From IMG/VR virus record IMGVR_UViG_3300027804_000001, positions 96,001-160,000 of that record: a stretch of 64,000 nucleotides of DNA; one strand, 5' to 3'. Origin of the DNA: a virus. Lineage: Duplodnaviria; Caudoviricetes. A model generated the notes under the pieces. The model was given only the letters and a program-made list of their open reading frames with translations, did not search any database and was not told the origin of the DNA. A program made the translations under genes and the position numbers. Below, one piece after another: positions 4,235 to 6,529 of the stretch (position 1 is its first letter; each line of letters starts with the position of its first letter).

Positions 4235-4319
4235 GGGGGTATATAAGGGGGGATACGGGAGGGGGGAGGGGGTATATAGGGATAAGGGGGTGAGTATCAA
4301 TTAGTTAGGGGGTATAGGG
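4235..4319 (+). other. G-tract cluster with G-quadruplex potential at left border of island
   Basis: Nine runs of 3-6 G in 85 bp of an AT-rich genome. Confidence 0.7.
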
Positions 4320-4356
4320 CCATTCTTTATTCAAACCGGATCAACAGGGTGGTGAG

Positions 4357-4377
4357 TGTGGATAACTATGTGGATAA
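4357..4377 (-). promoter_or_regulatory. two tandem perfect DnaA-box sequences (TTATCCACA on minus strand)
   Basis: TGTGGATAA at 4357-4365 and 4369-4377. Confidence 0.6.
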
Positions 4378-4472
4378 CTTTAATAAAAAAAAATAAAAAA
4401 AATTTATCATTATACTTTTTTATATGGAATTAATTTCCGTACTTTGTTCTATCAATAACAATTAAACATTTA

Positions 4473-5015
4473 ATGATTATGAAAAATTCAATGAACACAA
4501 CCGAAGTAAACATTACAAAGAACGAGTTATTAACTTTGTTAATGTCAGTAGACAAACCGACCTTTACTAACATTCTTTACCAAATTAAAGTAAAGATGAA
4601 CAAGACCGACAACCCTTATTACGAGAGGGTATTCAAGACAACCAAAGGAAACTTTTTCATTGGGGGTACTTACGAGGATATGGTAAACGAGAGAATGAAG
4701 AAAGAGGGATTGACACCTAACTTTGTGAGTGAGGAAAACAATGTAGGGGAACACATTACAAAGTGTGTTCAGTTCAATGAGAAGTACAACAAACATTACC
4801 TACAATACTTTTCTTTTGAAAATTCAATTCATTCAACCGAATATGAATTTGAGGGAAGAAACATTGATAGAGAAATGTTCAAGTCCTTTGAGGTTAAGAA
4901 GTCCGAGAGTTCAAGACAACCCCAAGACAACAAACACCAAGTACAAAGTTTGACTATTGACAACATTAGGAAAATAACTTTGAACGGAACGAAGTACAAT
5001 GTAGTTGAGGGGTAA
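4473..5015 (+). CDS. hypothetical early protein (no Ala, no GpC)
   Basis: 180-aa ORF, first gene of island, followed by terminator. Confidence 0.85.
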   Translation: MIMKNSMNTTEVNITKNELLTLLMSVDKPTFTNILYQIKVKMNKTDNPYYERVFKTTKGNFFIGGTYEDMVNERMKKEGLTPNFVSEENNVGEHITKCVQFNEKYNKHYLQYFSFENSIHSTEYEFEGRNIDREMFKSFEVKKSESSRQPQDNKHQVQSLTIDNIRKITLNGTKYNVVEG

Positions 5016-5042
5016 CAACCCCTTTCCTTTGGAAACCAAAAG

Positions 5043-5071
5043 TCCCTTACGAGAGTAGGGGATTTTTTTTT
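5043..5071 (+). terminator. intrinsic terminator
   Basis: TCCCTTAC-GAGA-GTAGGGGA + T9. Confidence 0.85.
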
Positions 5072-5100
5072 GTCCAAGAACCCACCTTCGTCCCGTTGGG

Positions 5101-5286
5101 AATAGTGAACGGCCCCAAAAAAATACACACAAAAAAAATTCAAAAAAAATTTGGAGGATTTTTTTCCTTCCCGAATAATGAGGGGCCCGTATTACAAGAA
5201 AATGAAAAATTTACAACCTTGTATTTTTTTTGAATAATGACAGGCCCATGTATTTTTGTCATACACGAACTGAGCCGTTCATTAAT
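5101..5286. repeat. spacer 1: four copies of ATGAMYGGCY motif (3 forward, 1 reverse)
   Basis: 5101, 5174, 5233 (+); 5273 (-). Confidence 0.8.
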
Positions 5287-5327
5287 TTTCTCCGACAGAT
5301 GTCCCACAAAAAAAAATAAAATATTTT

Positions 5328-5358
5328 ATTGTGTAATGAAATAAATGTTATACATTTG
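5328..5358 (+). promoter_or_regulatory. Bacteroidota -33/-7 promoter
   Basis: TTG...TACATTTG. Confidence 0.75.
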
Positions 5359-5382
5359 TACTCAATTAAAAAATATAATAAA

Positions 5383-5631
5383 ATGAACAAAGAAAAAGTA
5401 ACCGAGATTGTCAATGAAGTTATTAACCAAAGGTTAGAACAACTAATGGAAGAAATGTCCACCAACGAGTTCGTGGAAATGATTTGTGATATGGTACACG
5501 ACCAAGTGGGTTTGGATTTGGAAGATGAGGACAAAGTAGAGGAAGTCCGAGAAATTATTGGTAGTAGGGTTATACCTTTACTGACCAAAGTGTGTGAGTA
5601 TGTCATTGGAGTAGACCTACCAAAGGACTAA
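5383..5631 (+). CDS. acidic hypothetical protein, 82 aa
   Basis: Start reassigned to MNKEKVT downstream of promoter. Confidence 0.85.
   Translation: MNKEKVTEIVNEVINQRLEQLMEEMSTNEFVEMICDMVHDQVGLDLEDEDKVEEVREIIGSRVIPLLTKVCEYVIGVDLPKD
5404..5441 (+). repeat. 38-bp exact direct repeat, copy 1 (copy 2 at 6488-6525)
   Basis: GAGATTGTCAATGAAGTTATTAACCAAAGGTTAGAACA. Confidence 0.95.
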
Positions 5632-5654
5632 ATAAAAGTTCCCCCACTTTTAGA

Positions 5655-5688
5655 TACCCTTACAAGAAATTGTAGGGGTATTTTTTTT
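5655..5688 (+). terminator. intrinsic terminator
   Basis: 11-bp stem, GAAA loop, T8. Confidence 0.85.
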
Positions 5689-5699
5689 GACCACCTGAT

Positions 5700-5780
5700 T
5701 TACCATCCGGGGTTCATGGAATAATGAATGGCTCCAATCGTATTACAGGCCGTTCACTATTCCCCATCCGGATCACGGTG
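5700..5780. repeat. spacer 2: inverted motif pair around GTATTACA; CCGG, CATG and GATC sites
   Basis: ATAATGAATGGCT 5721; GGCCGTTCACTATT 5748. Confidence 0.8.
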
Positions 5781-5849
5781 AAAAAAAAAGTTTCATTCTT
5801 TCCTTATGTTTAGTACCCAATTCACCTCTATATAATAAACAACACTATT

Positions 5850-6002
5850 ATGAAAAATGAATTGAACGAGTTATTCTTATTGATTGAGAATGAAATGGAA
5901 GAAGTACCGACAACTGATTTGTTTGATGAGTTCTTTGATGAACTTGATGTTGAGTACATTAATAGAGATTGGGAAACTCGTTACGGGTTCCGTCCTCTGT
6001 AA
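5850..6002 (+). CDS. small highly acidic protein, 50 aa (not in ORF track)
   Basis: MKNELNELFLLIENEMEEVPTTDLFDEFFDELDVEYINRDWETRYGFRPL; 15 D/E. Confidence 0.75.
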   Translation: MKNELNELFLLIENEMEEVPTTDLFDEFFDELDVEYINRDWETRYGFRPL

Positions 6003-6003
6003 A

Positions 6004-6062
6004 ATTGTGAATGGCCCTCGAATGATTTTATTCGGGGGTTTAATTTATGAGCCGTTCATTTT
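6004..6062. repeat. spacer 3: inverted motif pair
   Basis: ATTGTGAATGGCC ... AGCCGTTCATTTT. Confidence 0.75.
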
Positions 6063-6099
6063 TTACATGTCGTCTTCTGAGGTGAAAAAAAAAAATAAA

Positions 6100-6131
6100 T
6101 TTGGAATATAATAAAAATAGTATTATATTTG
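6100..6131 (+). promoter_or_regulatory. Bacteroidota -33/-7 promoter
   Basis: TTTG-N20-TATATTTG; 40 bp identical to promoter at 8265-8304. Confidence 0.9.
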
Positions 6132-6154
6132 TGGAAACAAAACAAAATAACAAA

Positions 6155-6529
6155 ATGATAAACGAATTATTTATGAACCAATGTTTTGAGTATGGTGAAC
6201 GAGAGTTCAACACGAAGGAAACTTTAGACCTCCTAAAAATGAACGGCTTCAAGTTTTGGAGTTGGGGTGCAAGTGGATTCAAAAACTTTGGGGATAAAGT
6301 ATTAACATTTAAAGTTCAAGGACACCACCACAAAGGTTATGTAGTAATAACATTGGGTTGGGATGACACCTATACTATTAGATTGGTAAGTACACAAGGG
6401 AATGTGAAGTTCAAAATGGAAGGAGTGTATTTCGATATGTTGTTCGAGATTCTTGATGAGAAGATTGAACGAATACCTGAATATGTGGAGATTGTCAATG
6501 AAGTTATTAACCAAAGGTTAGAACATTAG
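6155..6529 (+). CDS. hypothetical early protein, 124 aa
   Basis: Start MINELF downstream of promoter; C-terminus carries the duplicated 38 bp. Confidence 0.85.
   Translation: MINELFMNQCFEYGEREFNTKETLDLLKMNGFKFWSWGASGFKNFGDKVLTFKVQGHHHKGYVVITLGWDDTYTIRLVSTQGNVKFKMEGVYFDMLFEILDEKIERIPEYVEIVNEVINQRLEH
6488..6525 (+). repeat. 38-bp exact direct repeat, copy 2
   Basis: Identical to 5404-5441. Confidence 0.95.

Follow-up and report, generated by a model that had tools for sequence, protein, structure and literature searches.

We analyzed a 64,000-nt window of a viral contig from the IMG/VR database (180,831 bp, 31% G+C, estimated to be 54% complete) and found that a block of small genes at the left end of this window is almost free of the dinucleotide 5'-GC-3' (GpC). 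Every alanine codon (GCN) holds a GpC step, and GpC-free genes therefore encode alanine-free proteins. The interval is the sharpest local part of a lineage-wide, selection-driven purge of GpC, which acts on nucleic acid and not on protein. This purge removes GCN and NGC codons, GpC steps across codon junctions, and the GpC of 5' leaders and terminator stems. The explanation that we favor, with a probability of roughly 0.4, is evasion of a GC-specific nuclease that acts on transcripts in the manner of the toxin MqsR.

GpC-free run and alanine-free genes at the left end of the window

A scripted count placed the GpC steps of the interval 4319-6260 at exactly ten positions (4319, 5112, 5185, 5244, 5274, 5731, 5749, 6014, 6051 and 6246), all of them in GGCC, GGCT or AGCC, i.e. 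in the RGCY context, and found none between 3916 and 4319. The first-pass annotation of this DNA had listed the same ten positions as cores of a repeated RGCY motif, and they were reproduced exactly. With the ten cores masked, the GpC-free run extends from 3916 to 6269 (2353 bp, no strand assigned) and is the longest in the contig by a factor of more than three, the second-longest being 722 bp. The probability that a run of 2353 bp arises by chance is ~1e-10 at the GpC density of the genome and ~5e-9 at the local density. A survey of GpC along the contig, which the annotation had recommended, thus sets this run apart; shallower troughs exist as well, and 1942-bp windows with at most ten GpC correspond to about the first percentile of the contig.

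Genes, promoters and terminators were predicted with our own heuristics (253 genes over the contig). The genes of the purged part of the window are the following:

4473..5015, plus strand: first gene of the island, 180 amino acids (aa), no GpC, no alanine
5383..5631, plus strand: 82-aa gene, no GpC, no alanine
5850..6002, plus strand: 50-aa gene, no GpC, no alanine
6155..6529, plus strand: 124-aa gene, two GpC (6246 and 6269), one alanine
6862..7029, plus strand: 55-aa gene, no GpC, no alanine
7252..9353, plus strand: four more genes, of 72, 115, 193 and 91 aa, in which alanine occurs 1, 2, 1 and 0 times

Four genes without GpC or alanine (4473-5015, 5383-5631, 5850-6002 and 6862-7029) and the single alanine of the 193-aa gene (8326-8907) had been reported earlier, and our counts agree. 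The near-alanine-free zone of this genome closes with the last four genes of the list. Gene calls without any GpC number 20 in the contig, and one of these is 162 aa long. The nine consecutive genes with the lowest alanine content of the contig are those of 4473-7822 (0.6% alanine; elsewhere, 3.1%), and the alanine content of 4473-9353 is also 0.6%, compared with 2.7-3.3% in small genes elsewhere in the contig. Within the gene island (4317-22102), genes lying farther from the left border have a higher alanine fraction (Spearman rho 0.55, P 0.002, 29 genes), which bears out the claim that the depletion eases away from this border; the same was seen in relatives. At synonymous sites and codon junctions of the left end of the window, 4 GpC were observed against 6.9 expected at the genome rate, which is not significantly lower; extra local depletion at such sites was significant in relatives only.

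Searches of Pfam, PHROGs and NCBIfam revealed no family for the first island genes, and an AlphaFold model of the 180-aa protein (predicted local distance difference test score, pLDDT, 80) gave no fold match in the PDB at E 0.001 or better.

On the other side of this border, the divergent leftward operon (window coordinates -736..376, which extend just left of the window, and 2372-2563) is alanine-poor too (2 alanines in a 370-aa protein, none in a 63-aa protein), so that the trough is roughly symmetric about the border.

Avoidance of GpC throughout the contig

Over the whole contig GpC occurs at 0.55 of expectation, and GG and CC at 1.4. Alanine accounts for 3.0% of 53,071 codons (253 genes). 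Sorted by codon phase, 1606 GpC lie in alanine codons, 155 in NGC codons and 228 at codon junctions. The share of NGC among NGY codons is 3-8%, compared with a C-ending share of 11-39% in the remaining NNY pairs, and the junction of a G-ending with a C-starting codon reaches 0.33 of expectation.

Depletion was seen in all NGCN contexts: AGCT was lowest (0.19), AGCC/GGCT stood at 0.44 and CGCG at 0.36, and the highest ratios were those of GGCC (1.05) and TGCA (0.93). With Markov ratios of ~1, the tetranucleotide counts follow from the trinucleotide counts, and the effect is therefore not specific for RGCY. The RGCY specificity proposed in the annotation is not supported, as every NGCN is depleted, GGCC least of all, and RGCY is the motif's own core; the broader idea that GpC itself is counter-selected found support as selection at the level of nucleic acid, reproduced in relatives. 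Flank preferences are strand-symmetric (AGC 0.41, GCT 0.41), and A is disfavored at −1 (0.69) and −2 (0.84) before the surviving alanine codons. CTAG, AGCT, GATC and GCGC are strongly under-represented in the contig.

Judging only by the Bacteroidota-type promoters, the host would be a member of the Bacteroidota. Bacteroidota genomic loci have GpC at 0.89-1.51 of expectation, and the phage is therefore not copying the composition of such a host.

Homologues and relatives

A megablast search of 3500-9500 against phage records gave no match. The 180-aa protein has 65 homologues in metagenomes (40-98% identity), with one alanine in 11,226 residues, and those homologous genes whose DNA could be retrieved contain no GpC, compared with 12-22 expected. 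When viral contigs were searched, the single protein gave no match as a query, whereas an alignment (profile) of the homologues revealed 21 further loci, in phages of up to 673 kb. At the 13 GpC-poor loci (0.29-0.59 of expectation) the homologue has no alanine and at most one GpC. The other eight loci are GpC-normal (0.78-1.19); in seven of them the homologue, a distant one, contains 9-17 alanines (5-9%), the closest being confirmed at E 9e-31, and in the eighth, L028, it has one alanine and four GpC. The loss of alanine is therefore forced upon this protein family by its DNA and does not reflect the nature of the proteins. The annotation had asked whether homologues elsewhere are equally alanine-free, which would have counted against it: they are so only in GpC-avoiding phages and hold 5-9% alanine in the others. 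That alanine-free proteins are a by-product of the GpC purge is thus supported, and reproduced in relatives.

In the relative L007 (82% identity), 2780 bp contain 12 GpC (88 expected), 11 of which are cores of the same motif as in the window, and all five genes are alanine-free. The first 1.6 kb of L006 show a similar pattern, and L001, L003 and L005 carry other repeats, which bear GpC. A DUF932 protein has no alanine among its 286 residues in L001, 9 alanines in the present genome and 7 in L008. At the four conserved alanine columns of this family, the alanine-free copy has G, S, G and V, mostly through transversions, in what is a small sample; a search for DUF932 in bacterial genomes gave no relative. 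Besides DUF932 genes, the islands of the relatives hold RadC, SprT-like, DUF4314 and DUF3846 genes. All relatives in IMG/VR are classed as linear, without end repeats.

A single purged zone in each genome

The relative G003 (323,865 bp, 97% complete, genome-wide GpC 0.59) has a single trough at 156.4-167.1 kb, in which 4-kb windows fall to 0.19, 0.01 and 0.10, whereas the rest of the genome is never below 0.33. The 6.7 kb between 159,256 and 165,959 contain one GpC. Among the 2300 codons of the zone there are 4 alanine codons, NGC codons number 0 of 159, and G-to-C codon junctions 0 against 44 expected (15.5 at the genome's own rate). GC-containing words top the list of those depleted in the zone relative to the rest (P 6e-79). 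The zone ends fairly sharply near 167-168 kb.

Other loci, too, have such a polar zone, which begins at the left island border: L001 (~10 kb), L008 (~11 kb), L003, L005, L015 and L020; it is shortest in the present genome (~3-5 kb), and in G003, L001 and L008 its end is fairly sharp, ~10-12 kb from the border. That the purge is strongest beside the left border and eases outward is therefore reproduced in relatives.

When the zones of seven loci were pooled (window 4150-9353, L001, L003, L005, L006, L007 and L008), GpC stood at 0.19 of expectation, compared with 0.52 in the rest, and all GC-containing 3-mers led the list of depleted words, on which GAC/GTC does not figure. AC/GT reaches 1.13 in the purged zones, up from 0.98. 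CTAG occurs once in the 50.6 kb of the pooled zones (160 expected; 0.19 in the rest of the same loci), being missing from genes as well as spacers, and AGCT is purged from zone genes and zone spacers both. GATC has nearly disappeared from coding DNA (1 against 81 expected in zone genes; 0.24 genome-wide).

Transcription units and untranscribed gaps

Terminators were placed by T-runs and promoters by TTTG-N17-22-TAnnTTTG; the units and gaps considered here are thus predicted from sequence. The transcription units of the window contain 125 GpC against 277.7 expected (0.45), and the untranscribed gaps 62 against 56.6 (1.10), a difference with P 5e-8. The first five units of the window have 0, 0, 2, 2 and 0 GpC. 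Pooling of 71 spacers from 11 loci, 38 of them distal, gave the following ratios:

Distal island spacers: 3' untranslated region (UTR) 0.27, gap 1.08, promoter plus leader 0.12
Purged-zone spacers: 3' UTR 0.05, gap 0.48, promoter plus leader 0.00

One gap in the middle of the L001 zone contains 10 GpC. In the gaps of the island GpC, GATC and GCGC are at parity and GGCC reaches 4.7 times expectation, but CTAG, AGCT and ACGT are still purged, which sets GpC apart from the words avoided at the DNA level.

The GATC sites of the untranscribed gaps often form tandem clusters such as CTGATCTGATCCTGATCAG (window 19430-19440, 19697-19711 and 21124-21143; G003 162,540-162,570).

The spacer motif, the gene island and its left border

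The ten GpC-bearing copies, when oriented, align to GAATAATGAAYGGCYC, and RGCY is therefore simply the core of this motif:

4317..4332, minus strand: motif copy GAATAAAGAATGGCCC, GpC 4319, within the left border
5100..5115, plus strand: motif copy, GpC 5112, in the untranscribed gap past the first predicted terminator
5173..5188, plus strand: motif copy, GpC 5185
5232..5247, plus strand: motif copy, GpC 5244, paired in inverted orientation with the copy at 5272
5272..5287, minus strand: motif copy, GpC 5274
5719..5734, plus strand: motif copy, GpC 5731; the copy at 5747 is its inverted partner
5747..5762, minus strand: motif copy, GpC 5749
6002..6017, plus strand: motif copy, GpC 6014, in a 3' UTR ahead of a terminator hairpin
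6049..6064, minus strand: motif copy, GpC 6051, directly after the hairpin that follows the copy at 6002..6017
6234..6249, plus strand: weaker match inside the coding sequence 6155-6529, GpC 6246 in a rare GGC codon

The surviving GpC are thus the cores of a functional spacer motif, seven of them in predicted untranscribed gaps and one in the non-coding left border. The GGC codon at 6246 is retained in L006. A weight-matrix scan of the whole contig placed ~40 motif copies, all within 4317-22102 and often in inverted pairs; outside this island it returned one strong copy ~25 kb upstream, which scores 21.9 and, having GACC as its core, holds no GpC, as well as a dozen weak matches, dispersed and with scores close to the threshold. 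The gaps of the G003 zone are built, like those of the window, of a terminator, an inverted motif, an A-run and a promoter, but their motif, TTTACTGGA..TCCAGTAAA, is without GpC.

Two further features frame the genes:

4317..22102, plus strand: island of small genes, in cassettes that all have a TTTG..TAnnTTTG promoter and a terminator of their own
4110..4400, no strand assigned: conserved non-coding left border with TTCCGGAAAAATTTCTGT.ACGG.ATTG.CCCCCCTAT, G tracts and two TGTGGATAA boxes

The island holds 16 of the 19 plus-strand matches to the promoter consensus in the window. In the border, five to seven G5-6 tracts follow CCCCCCTAT, and in this genome two tandem TGTGGATAA sequences (DnaA-box-like) lie after them, at 4357-4377. 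The border is also present in L006 (1-330), L023 (1-160) and G003 (155,760-155,900), and is kept across relatives whose proteins are only 34-80% identical. Contigs of several independent assemblies begin inside a G tract (X2-X4 at 4245-4247, and also L007 and L021); these breaks near 4245 could be an assembly artefact.

Many motif copies have a left half of TGTGGATAA or GGTGGATAA (DnaA-box-like) fused to TGAAYGGC (window 6618, 6694, 8200 and 8999; L007 1819 and 2701). Contigs of related strains are joined spacer to spacer over whole cassettes (4274 to 7031, 5075 to 7071, 7195 to 17173 and 9095 to 16810), which suggests that cassettes are shuffled or lost through the repeated spacers. In the spacer 6735-6790, 9-nt units of the form GAAGTACCT / GATGTACCA follow one another; since dozens of contigs from four runs diverge in the number or version of the units, this is a hypervariable tandem repeat.

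A nuclease acting on transcripts as the proposed cause

MqsR cuts single-stranded RNA at 5'-GC-3', with A preferred at −1 and −2 (PMC9636575). Transcripts without this site are spared, and the MqsR/MqsA/MqsC system defends against phage T2 (PMC13409141). We propose that the protected unit is the transcription unit, and that the agent would be a nuclease which needs only 5'-GC-3' and, like MqsR, cuts single-stranded transcripts. As a single cut would inactivate an mRNA, the mRNAs needed first would have been written without any GC. Such messages would be immediate-early ones, transcribed from host-type promoters, and may encode a countermeasure; later mRNAs would merely be thinned of GC, and untranscribed gaps would escape selection and drift to parity. 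Candidate sources of the nuclease are a toxin-antitoxin or abortive-infection defence of the host, and a phage weapon directed against host mRNA. In its boldest form, to which we give the same probability, an enzyme that reads GC alone, most simply either an MqsR-like RNase of freshwater Bacteroidota or a host-shutoff enzyme of the phage, would have driven this group of jumbo phages to GC-free immediate-early genes. The loss of 5'-GC-3' from all codon phases and also from UTRs is what evasion of an MqsR-type enzyme requires.

Several observations weigh against this proposal. The core of the G003 zone includes 1934 bp of non-coding DNA with 1 GpC against 44.6 expected, and the gaps concerned have ordinary terminators and promoters and keep their GATC clusters. 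The zone gaps of the window and of L007 retain motif GpC only, and promoter cores, which are not transcribed, are GpC-poor (10 against 39.7 expected). Terminator stems would form double-stranded RNA, a poor substrate for MqsR. The word GC reads identically on both strands; the effects of flanking bases are likewise strand-symmetric and therefore do not separate a cause at the RNA level from one at the DNA level. An RNase also leaves the parallel loss of GATC from coding DNA and of CTAG everywhere unexplained. Finally, searches of four phage genomes with PF00545 (barnase/T1) and PF05016 (RelE) gave no match; PF15723 (MqsR) gave none either, a result that is uninformative because the control genomes had no match to it.

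Alternative explanations

The best-surviving alternative, which we consider only somewhat less probable, places selection on the DNA itself. The island would be the part of the genome that enters the cell, or is uncovered, first, like the first-step-transfer DNA of T5 or the leading region of T7-like phages. It would have been cleared of GC-core words because it has to withstand the nucleases of the host before the anti-defence proteins that it encodes are available, a few sites being tolerated where the spacer motif needs them. Phages T5 and BF23 are restricted only through sites in their first-step-transfer region, the border of which has repeats and DnaA boxes (PMC10644984, 10.1101/866236), and murciaviruses are similar with respect to their early-injected region (PMC12455610). 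The existence of a single zone in each genome, which begins at the conserved non-coding border and ends fairly sharply ~10-12 kb from it (G003, L001 and L008), fits this explanation, and so do the purged non-coding DNA of the G003 zone core (1 against 44.6), the restriction of gap GpC to motif cores in the window and L007, the loss of CTAG (1 against 160) and AGCT from genes and spacers of the zone, and the DUF932, RadC, SprT-like, DUF4314 and DUF3846 genes of the relatives' islands. The zone also lacks a word that is present elsewhere in the same genome (0.19 against 0.52 in the pooled loci; P 6e-79 in G003). Gaps within and beyond the zone, however, keep GpC, GGCC, GCGC and GATC (GpC 0.48 in the zone and 1.08 distally, with 10 GpC in the L001 gap), and the order of entry leaves the genome-wide depletion of all transcription units unexplained. 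Moreover, we are not aware of any DNA nuclease in bacteria that recognizes GpC alone. An RNA-level effect throughout the genome and a DNA-level effect in the zone could act together.

The two remaining explanations at the nucleic-acid level involve base modification or protein recognition, and two relevant genes are present:

56685..57653, minus strand: C5 cytosine methyltransferase (PF00145, E 1e-41)
52161..52778, minus strand: short methyltransferase-like protein (PF00145, E 3e-7; phrog_757, E 1e-31)

The specificity of the enzyme encoded at 56685 cannot be deduced, because the matches in the PDB cover the catalytic half only (M.HaeIII, E 8e-14). The relative G002 (93% complete) is GpC-depleted and has no match to PF00145, and G013, with normal GpC, has at least eight. 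The link to C5 methyltransferases drawn in the annotation consequently fails, even though both genes are real.

According to the same annotation, GpC is reserved as a signal. In the version considered here, GpC or RGCY would have been cleared so that a protein of the phage or host (a methyltransferase, nickase, recombinase or regulator) reads the motif copies only. All or nearly all GpC of 3916-6269 and of L007 are indeed motif cores, the copies of the motif are restricted to the island, many of them in inverted pairs, and it is the island gaps alone that keep GATC and GCGC at parity and have GGCC at 4.7 times expectation. We nevertheless regard this explanation as improbable. A 16-nt motif needs no clearing of a dinucleotide around it; the avoidance is genome-wide and the motif local; the G003 zone has a different gap motif without GpC, in spacers that are themselves GpC-free, and its purge is even more complete; L001, L003 and L005 have other, GpC-bearing repeats; and the connection with methyltransferases does not hold.

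Even less credit can be given to mutational decay, in which GpC methylated by the phage would deaminate to GpT/ApC, as CpG does in vertebrates, and only selected GpC would persist. The two methyltransferase genes, the rise of AC/GT from 0.98 to 1.13 in the purged zones and the strand symmetry of the depletion would agree with such a process. Ratios of 0.00-0.02 over 6.7 kb, in one zone only, are beyond a mutation bias; the DUF932 alanines changed to G, S, G and V, in this small sample mostly by transversion and not by the route from alanine to valine or threonine; gaps are at parity; and G002 is depleted without a C5 methyltransferase, whereas GpC is normal in G013, which has many.

Chance, or small fast-evolving proteins that need no alanine, can practically be dismissed, in spite of the generally GpC-poor genome and its 20 GpC-free gene calls (one of 162 aa), given the probability of the run (~1e-9 to 1e-10), the 2.7-3.3% alanine of small genes elsewhere, the purge of junctions and non-coding DNA, and the 5-9% alanine of distant homologues. 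A shortage of tRNA-Ala, caused by an attack on this tRNA, was ruled out, because the purge extends to codon junctions, UTRs and non-coding DNA.

A base-modification gene of the TGT/DpdA type was not found in the contig, which at 54% completeness proves little. The window does contain a thymidylate-synthase-family gene (61706-62722, minus strand; PF00303, E 2e-99), which encodes an ordinary-looking ThyA homologue and adjoins two PcfJ-like genes and the C5 methyltransferase gene. The closest relatives of this ThyA homologue in bacterial bins lie on small AT-rich contigs with GpC at ~0.7 of expectation; these are probably phage DNA mis-binned into metagenome-assembled genomes.

Significance and comparison with known systems

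A full-text literature search revealed no report of a phage that clears a dinucleotide, or of alanine-free blocks of phage genes. It is already established that nuclease sites are avoided, also in a position-dependent way in DNA that enters early, and that MqsR spares mRNAs without its site. In the group of giant freshwater phages described here the target is only two bases long, avoidance is complete over 3-12 kb, and one of the twenty amino acids has been stripped from two dozen consecutive proteins, including a conserved family of 281-286 aa. If the proposed cause is correct, this would be the first case of immune evasion at the dinucleotide level in phages, a prokaryotic counterpart of CpG avoidance against the protein ZAP, with a 19-amino-acid proteome as a by-product. 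The pattern may be the footprint of a putative nuclease of very short specificity in freshwater Bacteroidota or their phages, and may, provided that the predicted link with early expression holds, mark the earliest-acting genes of uncultured jumbo phages for which there are no expression data. The natural sets of alanine-free homologues can reveal how proteins tolerate the loss of a residue type, and gene finding and host prediction based on composition will misread such regions.

One close parallel is the "differential mRNA decay" caused by MqsR (PMC9636575; PMC13409141): the word concerned is GC itself, its avoidance largely goes with predicted transcription units, the A that MqsR prefers at −1 and −2 is disfavored in the phage, MqsR spares the site-free ghoT transcript, and the system defends against phage. 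In that case, however, a handful of Escherichia coli genes are without GCU, whereas here kilobases are cleared of GC and of alanine; some untranscribed gaps are purged here too, and no MqsR-like gene or activity is known for the phages or their host.

T5, BF23 and the murciaviruses share with the phages described here a block of a few kb of small early genes with host promoters (in our case predicted ones), the absence from this block of nuclease targets that the rest of the genome tolerates, and a non-coding border with repeats, inverted repeats and DnaA-type boxes. They differ in that the missing sites are of 4-7 bp or bipartite, and not a bare dinucleotide whose loss costs an amino acid. 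In our phages, studied as contigs, depletion extends over the entire genome but largely spares the predicted untranscribed gaps.

That phage genomes generally avoid restriction sites and palindromes was reportedly described by Sharp in 1986, by Rocha et al. in 2001 and by Rusinov et al. in 2018. The strong rarity of CTAG, AGCT, GATC and GCGC in our contig resembles this classical avoidance, which, in contrast to the purge of GpC, is uniform along the genome, word-specific and not split by transcription unit, and brings no dinucleotide to zero.

Vertebrate RNA viruses are said (Takata et al., in Nature in 2017) to suppress CpG and thereby to evade the CpG-binding protein ZAP. There, too, a virus strips one dinucleotide from its transcripts, because a host factor reads it in RNA; the host is eukaryotic, the dinucleotide is a different one, and the depletion is partial and costs no amino acid.

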